In this document: positions 1,180 to 9,940 of the stretch, one piece after another
Layout: the number at the start of each line of letters is the position of its first letter
How positions within the stretch are numbered: position 1 is the stretch's first letter
Source of the DNA: a virus
Taxonomy: Duplodnaviria; Heunggongvirae; Uroviricota; Caudoviricetes
Virus record (IMG/VR): IMGVR_UViG_2600255112_000003
Reading direction: 5' to 3' (one strand)
DNA: 10,992 nucleotides
The notes under the pieces: model-generated
The model's database searches: none
What the model was told of the DNA's origin: nothing
Seen by the model: the letters and a program-made list of their open reading frames with translations, nothing else
Translations under genes and position numbers: made by a program

Positions 1180-4023
1180 TCAATCTTTATCGTAAAAACT
1201 GCCACGCCCGGCACGGGCGCGCCGTTCCATTTCTGCCCTGACCATTTCACCGACCAGTTTCGCCAGTTCGCGGGGATTCTGCGTAACAACGTTATGCAGA
1301 TGAACATGAATTTCACCACCAAATCCGGAGGCAACAGGCTCCCGGTTACGGGAAGTTACAGGAACTGATGCCACTGGAGATCGTATAGCCTCCGCCACCG
1401 GGCGGGAGCTGGCCGCAACAACAGGGACCAGCGCCGGAGGCAGCGGAGCCGGGACCACGGGTGTGATATTAATTGCGGGGGCAGGCTTACTGACCTGCGC
1501 AATCTTCCGCTCCTGCCACTCCCCACGAACAGCAAGTGCTCGGGGCAGGTTTTTAAAGACAATATCGCCGGGGCCAATGCGTTTTTTCGTCTCCTCAACC
1601 AGCTTACCTGTGTTATCAGCAATTTTGCTGAGTCTGCGCAGCGTACCGGTATTGCTGTCTGTGAGCGGTTTATTGTCTTTGGGGTTATCACCTCCGGTGC
1701 CATTGCCATTTTCCACAGGCTTCGGCGGATTGATTTTCGCCAGGTCCCCCTGAAGCAAGGCAACCTTGTCCTGAAGAATGGCCGCACGCTGTGCGTCTTC
1801 GATTTTCTTGCGCGCCCTTTCCGCTTCATCCGGAAGCACACCAAGCTTTTCAAGTATCCACGCCAGCGTATCCAGCAACATTTTTGCAGGTGTCAGAACA
1901 AGTTGTAACGCACCGCCAAGAACGTTACCGAATATCTCGCCAGCACTGGTACATTTATCCAGCGTTTCCTTGCTGGACTCCATCGGTGACAGCAGCGATT
2001 TAAACCAGTTAAACACCTGGCTGATCCCACTCCCGATTGCGTCAAAAACAGGACCAAACCGTTCAAAGGTTTCGCGCAACGGGGTCAGCCTTTCCATAAT
2101 CCCGCTGAACACCCCGGCAAAAAATGCCCTGATGGGATCCCAGTATTTCCAGATAAGAACGGCAGCTCCGGCAAGCGCAGCCACGATAAGACCAACCGGA
2201 CTGAACAACGCCCCGATAGCGCCTCCCAGTAAAGAAACGGAACCCGTCACCATTCCCCATAGTGCTGGCAGAACCCTGACAGCATTCATTGATCCGGTCA
2301 GGAGGGAAAAACCAAGACGCAGTTTTGCCAGCGGGCCAGCAAGCACACCAATAGCCAGCGACAACGAGCCAACCGTTGCAGTCATTGCCAGCAGTGCACC
2401 GCCTGCAATCAGTAGCTGGCGCGTCAGTGCGGGATGGGCCTGCGCCAGCGCCGTCACCTTTGATACCACACGCGTGAGCCACTGCGTGACAGAACGCAGC
2501 GGACCGTCAATCAGATCTGCAATGCGGATGCGCAACCCTTCCCATGCACTGCTGAGTGATTTCAGATCGCCGTCAAGGTTGTTGGCCATAACCTTTGCCG
2601 TGCGTTCAGCCTCACCGCGCGCGCCTTCAAGTTCTTTTCTCAGTTTGGGTAAGGAGCCGTCACCTGCCGCATCAACGAGGGCCATAAATGATGTGAAAGC
2701 CTCTTCTCCGGCAATGTCCTTAAAGAACGATACCCGGTCAACTTCCCCGTATTTGCGGGTAGCTTTATAAAGGTCAGCCAGCACATCCTCCATCGGGCGC
2801 ATTTTGCCCCCGGCATCCGAGACAGACACGCCAAGCTCTTTCAGCGCCTCTGCTGCCGCCTTTGGCGGTGATGCCAGACGAGCCAGGCTGGCACGCATTG
2901 CCGTACCAGCATCACTCCCCCTGATACCCATATTCGCCAGCACGCCCGCCATCGCTGCGGCCTGCTCCAGCGATATTCCCAGCTTACCCGCCACCGGACC
3001 TGCATATTTCATGGTTTCACCCAGTGCGCGAAGGTCAGTGTTGGTACGGGTAAACGCTGCGGTGAGTGTGTCGCCGACCCGGCCCATCTGGTCAGCAGAA
3101 AGACCGAACTGCGTCAGAATATTTGAGCCAATATCCGCCGTCTCACCGAGGTCCATACCGCCAGCCGTTGCCATGCTCAGTACGCCAGGGAGCGCAGCCT
3201 GAATGGCCTGTGGTGTAAAGCCAGCCATTGCAAGAAATGCCTGTCCACTGGCGGCATCGCCTGCGGTGAACTGCGTTTCAGAGCCAAGTTTTAACGCCTG
3301 CTCACGCAGCGCCTTAAACTGCGGGCTGTTCTGGTCGATTCGCGTCAGTGCCTGAACGCGGGACATCTCTTTGCCGAACCCGATCGCAGGCTGCAAAAAA
3401 CGCCCGGCAGCATAGCCGCCCGCCGCTGCCGCACCAATTGCCAGCGCACCACCTGTTTTCAGTTTTCCCGCTGTTTCCTGCGCGCGCGAATACCGCTCAC
3501 GCGCCCGTGTTACACGCGCAAGCACCTGCCGTTCGCGTTCAAGCTGGTTGTTGTACTGTTCGGTGCGTCTGATGGCCTGCTGGATGGTGTTATCGCTGCC
3601 TGTCAGGGAAATGCCGTGGCGTTTCAGCTCTCCGCCAAGCTCCCGCATTTTCTGAATTTCCCGTGTGCGCGATTCATTCAGGCGTTCAAGCCGGGTGCTT
3701 AACTGCTGCATCAGCTTTTGTTGTTTTTCGCTGAGCACTGTACCCGTGCGTTGTAACTGATTAAGGGCGTTAAGCTGGCGTCGTGCTTTCACGATGCCCG
3801 CATCCGCTTTACTGACAGCGTCACGGGCGCGCTCAAATGATCGCGCCTGACGCTCGAGATTTTTGATCGCCCCCTGCGTTCGCTGGATGGAGTCACCAAA
3901 CTGCCCCATCAGGCGGCGGGCGTTTTCGGCAGGCCGGGTCAGCCTGTCAACGGCGCTGAAAGCGACCCGGATATCAAGAGTCTTCATTGTCTGCATTCCC
4001 GCTACGAAGTGCCGCCCGCTCAC
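1180..4023 (-). CDS. T: Tail tape measure protein (gpT-like)
   Basis: 947-aa ORF, Ala/Gly/Leu-rich, with a charged helical N-terminal third and central hydrophobic segments, positioned between E/E' and U as expected for a tape measure. The track start is GTG 4023; in-frame ATGs at 3996 and 3987 are alternative starts, and the start overlaps the end of the E' frame. Confidence 0.85.
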   Translation of the reverse strand: MSGRHFVAGMQTMKTLDIRVAFSAVDRLTRPAENARRLMGQFGDSIQRTQGAIKNLERQARSFERARDAVSKADAGIVKARRQLNALNQLQRTGTVLSEKQQKLMQQLSTRLERLNESRTREIQKMRELGGELKRHGISLTGSDNTIQQAIRRTEQYNNQLERERQVLARVTRARERYSRAQETAGKLKTGGALAIGAAAAGGYAAGRFLQPAIGFGKEMSRVQALTRIDQNSPQFKALREQALKLGSETQFTAGDAASGQAFLAMAGFTPQAIQAALPGVLSMATAGGMDLGETADIGSNILTQFGLSADQMGRVGDTLTAAFTRTNTDLRALGETMKYAGPVAGKLGISLEQAAAMAGVLANMGIRGSDAGTAMRASLARLASPPKAAAEALKELGVSVSDAGGKMRPMEDVLADLYKATRKYGEVDRVSFFKDIAGEEAFTSFMALVDAAGDGSLPKLRKELEGARGEAERTAKVMANNLDGDLKSLSSAWEGLRIRIADLIDGPLRSVTQWLTRVVSKVTALAQAHPALTRQLLIAGGALLAMTATVGSLSLAIGVLAGPLAKLRLGFSLLTGSMNAVRVLPALWGMVTGSVSLLGGAIGALFSPVGLIVAALAGAAVLIWKYWDPIRAFFAGVFSGIMERLTPLRETFERFGPVFDAIGSGISQVFNWFKSLLSPMESSKETLDKCTSAGEIFGNVLGGALQLVLTPAKMLLDTLAWILEKLGVLPDEAERARKKIEDAQRAAILQDKVALLQGDLAKINPPKPVENGNGTGGDNPKDNKPLTDSNTGTLRRLSKIADNTGKLVEETKKRIGPGDIVFKNLPRALAVRGEWQERKIAQVSKPAPAINITPVVPAPLPPALVPVVAASSRPVAEAIRSPVASVPVTSRNREPVASGFGGEIHVHLHNVVTQNPRELAKLVGEMVRAEMERRARAGRGSFYDKD

Positions 4024-6264: not shown

Positions 6265-6421
6265 AGCTTCAGCCCCTTGTATCCGTTAAATGATTCGGCA
6301 ACAATCATCACCCACCACGCGCGTAATCTCACCCCTGCGCCGTTCTCCCGATTCGGCGACAACAAAAAGCAGTAACCCCTTCCGCACGCACATGCGACCA
6401 TGCCGCACAGGGAGGGAACAG

Positions 6422-7531
6422 ATGACCGATACCACCATGCAATTGCTCAGTCAGGGCACGGCCCCCGTGAAAATGCCGGATTTGGATATTTTCGCGGAGG
6501 GTAAAACGCTGTCAGGCGTGGCAGAGCGCCTGATGAACCTGTCACTGACCGACAACCGGGGATTTGAAGCGGACCAGCTCACCATCACGCTGGATGATGC
6601 GGATGGTCAGTTGCAGCTACCGCCACGGGGCGCGCGCCTGACGGTTCTCATTGGCTGGAAAGGAGAGCCGCTGACAGAAAAAGGCACTTACATTGTTGAT
6701 GAAATCGCTCACGAAGGACCGCCGGACAGGCTGACTGTTTCAGCCAGAAGCGCAGATTTTCGGGATGAATTTAACGTTAAACGTGAGGTGTCCTGGCATG
6801 ATGTGACCGTTGAGCGTGTGGTATCCGCCATCGCTCATCGGTATGGTCTGAAACCGCAAATCAGCGAAATGCTGATGGATATCGAAATCGACCACGCCGA
6901 CCAGACCGAAGAAAGCGACATGTCCTTCCTTACGCGCATGGCGGAAATGCTGGGCGCAATCACCACGGTAAAAAGCGGCAATCTGTTATTCATCATGCCA
7001 GGTGGTGGCGTGAACGCACAGGGCCAGCCGTTGCCCTCGTTCGCCATTACACGCAGCAGCGGCGATCGCCATCAGTTCCGCATTGCTGACCGCGAGGCGT
7101 ATACGGGGGTACGTGCCTACTGGCTTGATCTTAATTACGGGAAAAAGAAAAAAGTCAGCGTGAAACGCCGTAAACCGCCAAAACCCAAAAAGGAGAAAAG
7201 CAGCAGCCGTGAAGGTGATTATATGGAGGGCGCGGAAGGCAATGTGTTTGTGTTACGCAAGACTTATCAGAACGAGCAGGCAGCAAGACGCGCAGCGGCG
7301 GCAAAGTGGCAGCAGCTACAACGCGGAGCCGCATCATTCTCCATCACGCTGGCGCGTGGACGCGCAGAACTCTATCCCGAAATGCATGGCACGGTAACAG
7401 GATTTAAAAGCGAGATTGATAATCAGGACTGGATTATTGCAAAAGCCGAGCACACCATTGATAACAGCGGCTTTACCACGCAGCTTGAGCTTGAGGCAAA
7501 AATCCCGGAATGGATAGCGGAAACAGAGTGA
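6422..7531 (+). CDS. D: P2-like tail protein gpD (late control gene D family)
   Basis: Long ORF immediately upstream of ogr, with a basic KKKKVSVKRRKPPKPKKEK linker. The track ORF begins at 6290, but ATG 6422 is preceded by GGAGGG (6411-6416) and gives about 369 aa, close to my recollection of P2 gpD size. Confidence 0.85.
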   Translation: MTDTTMQLLSQGTAPVKMPDLDIFAEGKTLSGVAERLMNLSLTDNRGFEADQLTITLDDADGQLQLPPRGARLTVLIGWKGEPLTEKGTYIVDEIAHEGPPDRLTVSARSADFRDEFNVKREVSWHDVTVERVVSAIAHRYGLKPQISEMLMDIEIDHADQTEESDMSFLTRMAEMLGAITTVKSGNLLFIMPGGGVNAQGQPLPSFAITRSSGDRHQFRIADREAYTGVRAYWLDLNYGKKKKVSVKRRKPPKPKKEKSSSREGDYMEGAEGNVFVLRKTYQNEQAARRAAAAKWQQLQRGAASFSITLARGRAELYPEMHGTVTGFKSEIDNQDWIIAKAEHTIDNSGFTTQLELEAKIPEWIAETE

Positions 7532-7872: not shown

Positions 7873-7894
7873 ACGTGCGGGTGCCTTTCGGCTG

Positions 7895-8107
7895 ATGGTC
7901 GGAGGGAATACCCGAAGGCCGGATGTGGAAAGGCCCCGGAAAACATATCTGTTTAACCGAGGCCCTAACCGCATTACCTTGACAAGTGAAAGGTTAGCGC
8001 CTCTCCGGAAAAGGAGCAAGTGCTATGTCGCAAAAATCGCTTACGGCCATCACGTTCTGCGTGACGGCAATCCTCATCATCTGGATGCTGCACGGTTCGC
8101 TGTGTGA
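7895..8107 (+). CDS. mok-like overlapping reading frame upstream of and overlapping hok
   Basis: 70-codon ORF in a different frame that starts upstream of hok and ends inside it, the geometry of mok in hok/sok loci. I see no clear Shine-Dalgarno and cannot confirm by similarity. Confidence 0.3.
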   Translation: MVGGNTRRPDVERPRKTYLFNRGPNRITLTSERLAPLRKRSKCYVAKIAYGHHVLRDGNPHHLDAARFAV

Positions 8108-8165
8108 AATACGGATGAGTTTCTGGGGAGCGGAGTTTGCGGCGTTCTTACAGTGTAAGCAGTAA
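8025..8165 (+). CDS. hok: Hok/Gef-family type I toxin (small membrane peptide)
   Basis: Not in the ORF track (46 aa). ATG 8025 is preceded by AAGGAG (8011-8016). Translation MSQKSLTAITFCVTAILIIWMLHGSLCEIRMSFWGAEFAAFLQCKQ has an N-terminal transmembrane helix followed by the SLCE(I/L)R ... E-x-AAFL-x-CK signature, closest to my recollection of HokA. Confidence 0.75.
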   Translation: MSQKSLTAITFCVTAILIIWMLHGSLCEIRMSFWGAEFAAFLQCKQ

Positions 8166-8174
8166 GGAAACCGC

Positions 8175-8196
8175 GACGGGGGAGCAATCCCCCGTC
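8175..8196 (+). other. Stable stem-loop just 3' of hok, possibly part of the hok mRNA 3' structure
   Basis: Perfect 9-bp stem gacggggga / tcccccgtc with a gcaa loop, 10 nt after the hok stop. There is no U-tract, so it is not a classical intrinsic terminator. Confidence 0.4.
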
Positions 8197-8226
8197 AATC
8201 GGTTGCCAGGGTAAGGTCGATAAGGC

Positions 8227-8321
8227 ACCCTATCTCACCAATGCCGTTCAGTTAGTTAAGGAATTGAGGTTCGAGCTATCGAACCTCAATTCCTTAACTG
8301 AACTACATTACCCTATCTCAC
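8227..8321. mobile_element. 71-bp palindromic miniature element with IS4-like termini, flanked by a 12-bp target-site duplication
   Basis: Exact 12-bp direct repeats ACCCTATCTCAC at 8227-8238 and 8310-8321 flank 8239-8309. The enclosed segment is almost entirely an inverted repeat: a 16-bp perfect stem, a gcta centre, and 9 more pairs after a 4-nt gtta bulge. Both tips begin AATG, and AATGCCGTTCAGTTA..AGGA resembles my recollection of the IS4 terminal repeat. A 12-bp duplication fits the 11-13 bp made by IS4-family transposases. Confidence 0.55.
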
Positions 8322-8445
8322 AGCTCTAAATGCAAAAATCCCATGAAACTGTGGGTATTTCATCACACACTGACACTGCTCTACCTTTCTATATGTATCA
8401 CTCTAAACCAGTTAATCAATTGGCACTTATCAACAACAAAAAATC

Positions 8446-8508: not shown

Positions 8509-8841
8509 ATGACATTAATCAAATGTCCTGAATGCCAGAAAGAGGTAAGCGATTCAGCATTATGTTGCCCTGCTTGTGGTAAACAACTGAAAAAACTTAA
8601 GCGTTCATTTTTTGGAAAACTCATTAAATGGACTTTTATATTTTTTAATATTTTTATGATCTATACACTTTTAGTTGGACTAGGAGGCGCTGATGAAATA
8701 ATAAACAATACCACATCCGATGCCGAAAAAGCTGGGGCAGTTATTGGTACGGGCTTAGGTTTAATTGTCATTGGAGGCTTATGGGTTATTGGCGATATCA
8801 TTATCGGAATTTTAGTATTTCTTACTAAACCAAAGGGATAA
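8509..8841 (+). CDS. Small membrane protein with N-terminal zinc ribbon and two predicted transmembrane helices
   Basis: AAGGAG Shine-Dalgarno 9 nt upstream. CPECQ-x12-CCPACG forms a four-cysteine zinc ribbon, followed by hydrophobic segments WTFIFFNIFMIYTLLVGLGG and AVIGTGLGLIVIGGLWVIGDIIIGILVFL. The coding sequence is visibly AT-rich. Confidence 0.7.
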   Translation: MTLIKCPECQKEVSDSALCCPACGKQLKKLKRSFFGKLIKWTFIFFNIFMIYTLLVGLGGADEIINNTTSDAEKAGAVIGTGLGLIVIGGLWVIGDIIIGILVFLTKPKG

Positions 8842-8845
8842 TAAA

Positions 8846-9739
8846 ATGAAAAATATGATTTTTTCTATAGGTGCATTATTTATATCAATTAGTGTACTGC
8901 CTGTTCATGCAGCAACTGAACATAAGAATTTCAATGCAGTGCTCCAGTGCCGAGCGATAGAAAACAATAAAGACAGACTTTCTTGTTACGATAAGTCAAT
9001 ACAACCGACTCGAACGAAAGTTGCTGAAAAATTTGAAAGCAGGGATCAATGCCCTGATGAGAAAGATGATGACAAACGTTTATCTTGTTATGATCGTTTT
9101 TTTTCTCCAACATTTACTCCATCTGTAAACTCAAAATCTAAAACGGAAAAGCTAGTAACAACAAAGGCTCAGCAACCAAATCTTTCTGAAATATCTAAAT
9201 GCCGAGCAGAAAATGATAAAGAAGCCAGACTAAACTGCTACGATAAACTATTCCCACAGGATGAAGCTGTTCAATCTGAATCACAATTAGAGAAAGCCAC
9301 AGATGCAGGAAAATGGCACACGTCCATTACTACATCGCCAATTGATGATTCGAAAAATATAATTTTATCGTTAGAAAGTGATGATTATATCAGAACTCCA
9401 TTTGGAGAAGCTGTTACTCCCACTCTGTTTATAGCTTGCCGAGAAAAGAAAACCGAAGTATTTCTTAGTTGGGATGTATATTTAGGCCTTGAACAAACCA
9501 GCATGCTGTATCGTCTTGATAAACAGAAAGCAGTTGAAAGAAACTGGCTAATATCTACAGATACAAAGGCTGTTTTTTATAAAGGTAATGATATTGATTT
9601 CATAAGAAAACTTGCCAACTCACATAAAATGTACACAAAAATAACCCCTTATAATGAAAGCCCTGTAAGTGCAACTTTCAATTTAAGCGGCCTGTCAAAT
9701 GCACTAAAACCGCTTCAAGATGCTTGTAACTGGAAATAG
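8846..9739 (+). CDS. Secreted (Sec signal peptide) cysteine-repeat protein of unknown function
   Basis: Starts 4 nt after the upstream stop with an AGGG ribosome-binding site, so it is likely co-transcribed. N-terminus MKNMIFSIGALFISISVLPVHA/AT is a typical signal peptide with an AxA cleavage site. Three repeats of C-x11-C-Y-D-[KR] are followed by a C-terminal domain of about 150 aa with two more cysteines. Confidence 0.75.
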   Translation: MKNMIFSIGALFISISVLPVHAATEHKNFNAVLQCRAIENNKDRLSCYDKSIQPTRTKVAEKFESRDQCPDEKDDDKRLSCYDRFFSPTFTPSVNSKSKTEKLVTTKAQQPNLSEISKCRAENDKEARLNCYDKLFPQDEAVQSESQLEKATDAGKWHTSITTSPIDDSKNIILSLESDDYIRTPFGEAVTPTLFIACREKKTEVFLSWDVYLGLEQTSMLYRLDKQKAVERNWLISTDTKAVFYKGNDIDFIRKLANSHKMYTKITPYNESPVSATFNLSGLSNALKPLQDACNWK

Positions 9740-9757
9740 TATATACCTCCCCAATAT

Positions 9758-9799
9758 CAGATGACAAAACGCCCGTGAAAACGGGCGTTTTGTCATCTG
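9758..9799. terminator. Strong bidirectional intrinsic terminator
   Basis: Perfect 18-bp inverted repeat cagatgacaaaacgcccg / cgggcgttttgtcatctg with a 6-nt loop. The GC core is flanked by A/T runs on both strands, 19 nt after the cassette stop. Confidence 0.8.
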
Positions 9800-9940
9800 T
9801 AACTCGAAAATGTGGTCATTGCGTGGACATACGATGATATAAATCCTTTTATATCAAAAGATTAAACCACTATTATTTTCCTCAACAAGGATTTTCACGT
9901 TTGTGTTACCTGTATGAGACGAGAGTTAACCAGACAAGTG

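Follow-up and report, generated by a model that had tools for sequence, protein, structure and literature searches.

Tn10 reportedly undergoes "nearly precise excision," a process said to have been described by Ross, Swan, and Kleckner in 1979 and by Foster and colleagues in 1981. The excision takes place between direct repeats of 24 bp and leaves a stub of 50 bp. Our data point to a comparable event in an Escherichia coli prophage, where short direct repeats likewise lie inside long inverted repeats and a near-total loss has left a palindromic stub with an intact target-site duplication; membership in the IS4 family is also shared with Tn10 and its IS10. The two cases differ in build, as Tn10 is composite with 1.3-kb IS10 arms, whereas the element considered here is a 1.5-kb cassette with inverted repeats of about 115 bp, and they differ in scale, with repeats of 9 bp and a stub of 71 bp at our locus.

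The closest analog of the intact parent element is MIC231, the mobile insertion cassettes of Bacillus cereus with IS231 ends (Chen et al. 1999 and De Palmenaer et al. 2004, cited in PMC2266710), in which IS4-family ends also surround one or more passenger genes within a target duplication and without a transposase gene, implying mobilization in trans. Unlike MIC231, the parent has ends of the IS4 rather than the IS231 subgroup, resides in phages of Enterobacteriaceae rather than in Bacillus, carries different cargo, and is presumed to be mobilized in trans; moreover, nothing but the gutted stub is left of it in the stretch of DNA that we analyzed (10,992 nucleotides, hereafter the window). IS4 of E. 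coli K-12 (insG) resembles the cassette in terminal sequence (18 of 19 positions in the copies on L018, L010, and L007), in the subgroup consensus, and in the range of duplication length. In contrast to IS4, the cassette has neither a transposase gene nor a remnant of one, its cargo is a RES gene with or without a zinc-ribbon partner, and its inverted repeats of about 115 bp extend far beyond the end match to IS4 of some 19 to 20 bp. A last parallel is offered by IS186 at hokC and hokE of K-12, where an IS-type element also lies immediately downstream of a hok gene. IS186A (L036:388-1961) and IS186B (L037:1837-3352) abut hokC and hokE 19 and 18 bp after their stop codons, inside the 3' untranslated region, and these distances suggest a common target preference at the 3' untranslated regions of hok genes; at our locus, the distance is 73 nt and the fold-back element is preserved.

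The window is E. coli DNA and represents the right arm of a P2-like prophage of the P88/Xuanwuvirus type, with genes for the tape measure protein, gpE, tail tube, sheath, gpD, and Ogr. Downstream of ogr follow hok/mok, a zinc-ribbon gene, a TagO/VasI-like gene, and then chromosomal flk, and homology to K-12 begins only at position 9874, the 5' end of pdxB. In the deposited genome of phage P88_4B11, the genes are ordered ogr, hok, the element, the zinc-ribbon gene, the tagO-like gene, and integrase; hok and the point of insertion therefore both belong to the accessory part of a temperate phage genome.

A preliminary description of this DNA had reported a 71-bp segment of two facing inverted repeats without a transposase gene, bracketed by identical 12-bp direct repeats and located about 75 bp after the hok stop, and these structural statements are borne out. 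The repeat ACCCTATCTCAC is present exactly twice in the window, at 8227 to 8238 and 8310 to 8321, against a chance expectation of about 0.01 matches, and two or more copies were found in none of 200 shuffles. The 71 bp between these copies (8239 to 8309) form a near-perfect palindrome with perfect 21-nt arms (8254 to 8274 and 8279 to 8299) and outer, imperfect arms (8240 to 8254 and 8295 to 8309), which as single-stranded DNA folds into a hairpin of -26.8 kcal/mol (z = -12.5). The segment contains no open reading frame and has no coding capacity, a tblastn search of the window with the IS4 transposase (K-12 InsG) returned nothing significant, with noise only (E >= 4), and the insert begins 73 nt past the hok stop codon (8163 to 8165). 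Diverged copies and one E. coli haplotype (type B, see below) end in CAATG...CATTG followed by CCCTATCTCAC, and in view of these ends the real duplication may be 11 bp long (CCCTATCTCAC, 8228 to 8238) and the remnant 72 bp, with the twelfth matching base being part of the end.

Related strains carry the same site in other states. E. coli 01G17CRGN001 (L001) has one ACCCTATCTCAC and exactly 83 bp fewer than the window, which provides the perfect empty site that the preliminary description had proposed to look for, and a contiguous empty locus is found in 167 genomes. At the identical nucleotide, and flanked by the same 12-bp duplication, E. coli 14EC020 (L002) carries an element of 1,483 bp, which is present in 66 of the 5,426 complete E. 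coli genomes and always chromosomal. A junction query composed of 99 bp of flank and 36 bp of element is likewise covered in exactly 66 of these genomes, which means that all copies of the element occupy one site. All closest relatives of the window, as well as phage P88_4B11, have the 1,483-bp element at this position. The best whole-window matches (98.0% to 98.5% identity) span 12,404 bp as against the 10,992 bp of the window and thus carry the full element, and the right flank of the window is identical to that of a filled-site strain at 528 of 529 positions, as compared to 477 of 531 for an empty-site strain.

The stub can be derived from the 1,483-bp element to the nucleotide. Its sequence combines 36 bp from the start of the L002 element with 44 bp from the end of that element, the two sharing the 9 bp GAGGTTCGA, and removal of element positions 37 to 1448, a loss of 1,412 bp, yields window positions 8239 to 8309 exactly. 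Direct copies of GAGGTTCGA are found at element positions 28 to 36 and 1440 to 1448, inside the inverted repeats; the sequence is direct in both arms because a small palindrome is embedded in each of the long inverted repeats (GAGGTTCGATAGCCCGAACCTC in the left one and GAGGTTCGAGCTATCGAACCTC in the right one). In the window, the left terminus (8239 to 8274, plus strand) is an IS4-like inverted repeat identical to positions 1 to 36 of the L002 element, its last 9 bp (8266 to 8274) being the microhomology at the deletion junction, and the right terminus (8275 to 8309, listed on the plus strand) is the opposite-strand IS4-like inverted repeat, measuring 35 bp, or 44 bp if the common GAGGTTCGA is included. 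The sequence across the deletion junction is AATTGAGGTTCGAGCTATCGAACCTCAATT. The endpoints of the loss thus fall in short direct repeats within inverted repeats, with both extreme termini and the duplication kept, which is the arrangement expected of a nearly precise excision.

The stub furthermore retains polymorphisms that are specific to the individual ends of the parent. The left end carries a tandem duplication of GTTA (GTTAGTTA, 8251 to 8258) that is missing from the right end and from the copies on L007, L010, and L018, and the right end reads TAG instead of CCG. The parent exists in two haplotypes, and the last 44 bp of the type A element (L002, L008) are identical to the right terminus of the stub. 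Type B, which is carried, for example, by L028 and includes the closest overall relatives, is distinguished by GAGGTTCGG in its right repeat and by a G, in place of A, beside the right end, and so the direct parent must be a type A haplotype; the left flank of type A is slightly less like the window (506 of 527 positions). The GTTA duplication probably cripples the left end, and such damage would account for the fixation of the E. coli copy at one site throughout the 66 genomes.

These data make it very probable that the 71-bp palindrome is an in situ deletion remnant of a nonautonomous cargo element of IS4 type and not a small element that transposed by itself. The junction microhomology and the analogy with Tn10 suggest slippage, rather than another kind of joining mediated by microhomology, as the likely mechanism of the deletion, and the microhomology would also fit an origin independent of transposase and RecA. 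We propose the following history. First, an IS4-like transposase acting in trans would have placed an IS4-ended cassette of about 2.4 kb, containing a RES-domain gene and its zinc-ribbon partner, into a P88/P2-like temperate phage, within its accessory region and at a point 8 nt downstream of the 3' fold-back element of hok, with duplication of 11 to 12 bp. In E. coli, the cassette is present as the 1,483-bp form, with the partner gene gone, about 115-bp inverted repeats, the left GTTA duplication, and fixation at one site. Finally, the window lineage lost 1,412 bp between the direct copies of GAGGTTCGA, most likely when replication slipped, without help from a transposase, across a snap-back of the inverted repeats, as in the nearly precise excision of Tn10, ending with 36 plus 35 bp of facing termini within an intact duplication. 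The stub is a dead scar, with no evidence of function or further mobility, and the coding region of hok is unchanged.

The preliminary description had interpreted the palindrome as a miniature inverted-repeat element (MITE) left by an IS4-family enzyme acting in trans. The part of this interpretation that stands is the IS4-type insertion, as supported by the IS4-like ends, the 11- to 12-bp duplication, the lack of a transposase, and the existence of an empty site. The arrival of a miniature element does not stand, given that the site, the duplication, and the end polymorphisms all belong to the 1,483-bp element and that deletion between its 9-bp repeats yields the 71 bp. By structure alone, the segment would pass for a MITE, being small and noncoding, with inverted repeats at its termini and a duplication of the kind typical of the parent IS, and a preformed 71-bp MITE composed of two IS4-type ends and mobilized in trans could have generated the 12-bp duplication upon inserting here. 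The 35 to 36 bp kept per end would in principle be enough for transposase binding, and IS4 is near full length in 2,480 of the 5,426 complete E. coli genomes. Such a scenario, however, needs, in a lineage with the 1,483-bp element in every one of its nearest relatives, a second independent insertion at the same nucleotide and with the same duplication, it leaves the coincidence of the junction with a 9-bp direct repeat of the parent, and its left end would have the 4-bp duplication that is missing from the mobile-looking copies.

The distribution of the small form also speaks against its independent mobility. The 71-bp form occurs in none of the 5,426 complete E. coli genomes, in which no place covers at least 80% of the 95-bp query and no further copy of the ends of the stub was found elsewhere; a plasmid search gave no match to the stub or its ends, and scans of genomes, viral contigs, and metagenomes recovered the small form only at the same site, on metagenome contig L027. 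Transposition of the small form to several sites, as expected of a MITE, was thus not observed in any of these collections, and neither were the copies with different flanking duplications that the preliminary description had anticipated. Taken together, we consider the insertion of a preformed MITE very unlikely. Two further matches to the termini were set aside as chance. A scan of one genome per species with the terminus GTTAAGGAATTGAGGTTCGA gave two single matches, one in an archaeal and one in an acidobacterial metagenome-assembled genome, and metagenome contig L025 has 19 nt of the terminus in common but is unrelated DNA that is poor in open reading frames and has no matching second end.

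L027 matches the window with a single mismatch over 5,719 bp and has the identical 71-bp stub and junction; because of this one difference, it represents a separate assembly of a very close relative. By the matches found, the 71-bp form appears to be known from the window and this one contig only. The contig also bears on whether the source DNA in fact has the 1,483-bp element, with its inverted repeats collapsed in assembly. Inverted repeats of about 115 bp are a classic cause of misassembly, and the 71-bp form is present in no complete (mostly long-read) genome. Yet the junction sequence ...AATTGAGGTTCGAGCTA... is absent from the parent and thus could not have emerged from a k-mer graph of parent reads, and the identical junction in the separate assembly of L027 renders an artifact of assembly or sequencing extremely unlikely. 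Deletion in situ from the type A element remains the reading that we adopt below.

The assignment of the ends to IS4 rests on several lines of comparison. K-12 IS4 has the ends TAATGCCAGTCAGTTAAGCAAC and TAATGCCGATCAGTTAAGGATCAG and a 12-bp duplication. The ends in the window, CAATGCCGTTCAGTTA[GTTA]AGGA on the left and (T)AATGTAGTTCAGTTAAGGA on the right, match the IS4 inverted repeat at 16 of 19 and 14 of 15 positions, with 16 of 19 for the right terminus, and the less-decayed copies (L018, L010, and L007) end in CAATGCCGTTCAGTTAAGGA, which matches the IS4 inverted repeat TAATGCCGATCAGTTAAGGA at 18 of 19 positions. The published end consensus of the IS4 subgroup is -AATR--------WTW----, with direct repeats of 10 to 13 bp (PMC2266710, Table 1). 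The left end CAATGCCGTTCAGTTA and the right end (T)AATGTAGTTCAGTTA conform to it, having AATG at positions 2 to 5 and TTA at positions 14 to 16, and the duplication falls inside the range for IS4 whether it is counted as 12 bp or as 11 bp plus an ambiguous base. The DDE transposase with a YREK motif that marks the subgroup is lacking from the 71 bp, which hold no open reading frame, and tblastn with K-12 InsG against the 1,483-bp and 2,397-bp cassettes gave only noise (E >= 4) and no remnants of a transposase pseudogene. No transposase with exactly cognate ends was found, and complete E. coli genomes, plasmids, phages, viral contigs, and metagenomes yielded no autonomous parent IS that combines these extended ends with a transposase. 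Going by its frequency in E. coli, resident IS4 is a plausible source of transposase for the cassette; mobilization in trans by IS4 InsG is a presumption for which the presence of IS4 provides circumstantial support.

The L002 element has terminal inverted repeats of about 115 bp, no transposase, and a single RES gene, annotated as a RES family NAD+ phosphorylase of 275 amino acids (Pfam RES, 4.8e-12). A complete element of 2,397 bp on L018 carries RES together with a 305-amino-acid protein that has a C-terminal CxxC...CxxC motif; its flanks TCGTTTTTGCGA and CCGCTTTTGCGG are identical at 9 of 12 positions and represent a decayed 12-bp duplication. This element adjoins the end of ogr in an orientation opposite to that on L010, an Enterobacter-type P2-like prophage in which the cassette end lies 27 nt after ogr and the right side has been lost. 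On L007, whose contig stops at the RES stop codon, the cassette end is located 22 nt downstream of a gp5/V-like spike gene and RES is about 90% identical. The cassette is thus found at more than one insertion site, namely, after ogr in P2-like prophages of the Enterobacter type (L010 and L018), after the spike gene (L007), and after hok in P88-like phages (the 66 genomes as well as L006, L008, L009, L024, and L026). With IS-type ends around one or more passenger genes, no transposase, and a duplication (L002 and L018), the parent has the makeup of a mobile insertion cassette.

In loci that have no IS4-like ends (L019 to L023), RES is followed by a gene with 85% identity to the partner. Since the partner follows RES in such loci as well, RES and its partner form a conserved two-gene module, and this module was captured between ends of the IS4 type. 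The module comprises a RES protein of 275 to 279 amino acids followed by a protein of about 291 to 305 amino acids with a C-terminal CxxC...CxxC zinc ribbon (L018:612-3008, L019:3001-4818, and, for the E. coli form, L002:2904-3731), and where it lacks IS4-type ends, it is situated at the prophage edge beside integrase (L019 to L023). The E. coli 1,483-bp form lacks the partner gene, and judged by this sequence comparison, it is a reduced version of the 2.4-kb two-gene cassette, within a decay series that leads from 2.4 kb through 1.48 kb to 71 bp. The RES family is not transposon-borne in general, as homologs of up to 83% identity (L011, L012, L014, and L019 to L023) have no IS4-like ends. In P88_4B11 (NC_049391.1; L030:4343-5169), the RES gene is split by a frameshift in a C run (...PPHQKNVK* versus ...PPPPEKCKIGRMN...) and is a pseudogene.

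Neither the PADLOC 2023 models nor NCBIfam assigned RES or the zinc-ribbon partner, and a PDB sequence search found no relative of RES; the pair is a candidate toxin-antitoxin or antiphage system. The cassettes outside E. coli lie 22 to 27 nt past the stop codon of a phage gene, at small palindromes (CCGCAAAAGCGG, CCGCAAATGCGG, and CGCATAATGCG; flanks at L018:598-611 and 3009-3030, L010:2624-2648, and L007:1181-1206), and in L018 and L010 the palindrome is followed by a T run and resembles an intrinsic terminator of ogr. To judge by these flanks, terminator hairpins or transcript ends may be preferred as targets. The opposite orientations at ogr in L010 and L018 could stem from recombination between the long inverted repeats that inverted the cassette (compare PMC3004938) or else from separate insertion events.

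A prior description of an IS4-ended RES cassette was not found in the literature searched, and the parent cassette may offer a lead as an undescribed and modestly interesting element on phage genomes. Joining these observations, we tentatively propose an undescribed family of IS4-mobilized, MIC-like cassettes in Enterobacteriaceae that would carry a RES (NAD+-targeting, toxin-like) plus an approximately 300-amino-acid zinc-ribbon module as a hitchhiking toxin or defense function and, within the accessory regions of temperate phages, insert immediately after transcript ends or terminator hairpins; in this scenario, the stub or the full element may alter the formation of the hok mRNA 3' end and thereby retune hok activation. 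As a whole, this combined proposal is possible but somewhat doubtful. If true, movement of the RES/zinc-ribbon module by IS4-type ends between P2-like phages would be a route for the spread of toxin or defense genes.

The position of the insertion relative to hok can be defined closely. The toxin gene (8025 to 8165, plus strand) encodes 46 amino acids (Pfam HOK_GEF, 4.1e-07), is annotated as Hok/Gef in relatives, and is overlapped by a mok reading frame (7895 to 8107, plus strand). In the predicted minimum free energy fold of positions 7876 to 8238 (z = -5.4), a 5' tac-like segment at 7879 to 7893 pairs with a 3' fbi-like fold-back element at 8215 to 8230, both on the plus strand, which is the same arrangement as the published tac/fbi stem that folds hok mRNA end to end (PMC9841398). 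An alignment of seven diverged hok loci shows conservation from GGGTGCC (7879 to 7885) to GGCACCC (8224 to 8230), where it stops, and in plasmid homologs of hok the homology is lost at 8230 to 8238. As both of these partners are invariant in the seven loci and give no covariation signal, the pairing rests on conservation, the predicted fold, and the published tac/fbi model. The conserved fold-back element ends 8 nt before the insertion point, which follows position 8238, and the sequence through 8238 equals the empty allele except for one loop single-nucleotide polymorphism; the fold-back element is intact because the left copy of the duplication preserves it. The suggestion in the preliminary description that the insertion disrupts hok control is weakened by this arrangement, which is unlike that of IS186 in K-12. 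A weak terminator-like hairpin (8340 to 8355, plus strand), which in empty-site strains would follow about 27 nt past the fold-back element, is displaced by 83 nt through the stub. An effect on hok by way of a changed 3' end is conceivable.

As RNA, the stub is predicted to form a very stable hairpin directly 3' of the fold-back element (-58 kcal/mol in context, z = -6.3), which could block the 3' exonucleases that normally activate hok mRNA (PMC9841398). A selected role as an RNA or DNA element of the hok locus, for instance, as a 3' stabilizer or terminator, would be in line with this stability and position. Against such a role, the hairpin has no U tract and is not classed as terminator-like, and the palindrome is confined to one narrow lineage and fully explained in sequence by the parent termini. 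It is, moreover, missing from the 167 genomes with an empty locus and from all seven diverged hok loci, in which conservation stops at 8230, in contrast to what would be expected of a regulatory element conserved across homologous hok loci; the possibility raised in the preliminary description that the palindrome is a conserved hok motif and not an insertion thus came out negative. An Rfam scan of the whole window at gathering thresholds identified no family, including no hok/Sok model. Selection of the palindrome as a functional element is accordingly extremely improbable, and we retain its interpretation as a deletion remnant.

For the window itself, the stub matters little, as it is an ordinary scar beside a hok gene whose fold-back is intact. 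It is of value as a clean case from nature in which a cargo transposon can be followed through three stages of decay, with two genes, one gene, and a 71-bp stub, and in which the last step mirrors the classical nearly precise excision of Tn10. It follows from this example that a "MITE-like" palindrome with a target duplication should not by itself count as evidence for transposition of a miniature element. The natural allelic series on the 3' side of hok, comprising an empty site, 71 bp, and 1.5 kb, also offers material for the study of how downstream sequence affects 3' processing.

Several features of the surrounding prophage were observed along the way. The region between hok and the attachment junction (8509 to 9739) contains two genes as accessory cargo of the P2-like prophage, one for a zinc-ribbon membrane-type protein of 110 amino acids and one for a TagO/VasI-like protein of 297 amino acids from a family associated with type VI secretion; hok together with the former is also present on E. 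coli plasmids of about 142 to 165 kb. Downstream of the tagO-like gene and just upstream of the junction, a strong hairpin resembling a bidirectional terminator (GACAAAACGCCCGTGAAAACGGGCGTTTTGTC) is located at 9760 to 9800. The junction between island and chromosome lies at 9874, where the attachment site overlaps the 5' end of pdxB, of which about the first 25 nt are duplicated (9874 to 9900). At its left edge, next to the tail genes, the window has a recombinase-family, DNA-invertase-like gene (38 to 643), which in L028 is annotated as "recombinase family protein." The gene for gpD (late control D/baseplate hub; 6290 to 7531) is an intact open reading frame of 413 amino acids, whereas the annotation of the closest complete genomes gives a truncated gene, with a VgrG/Pvc8 family fragment and a pseudogene (L028:6678-7531 and L002:1001-1854), which indicates that prophage decay has been unequal between otherwise similar lineages.
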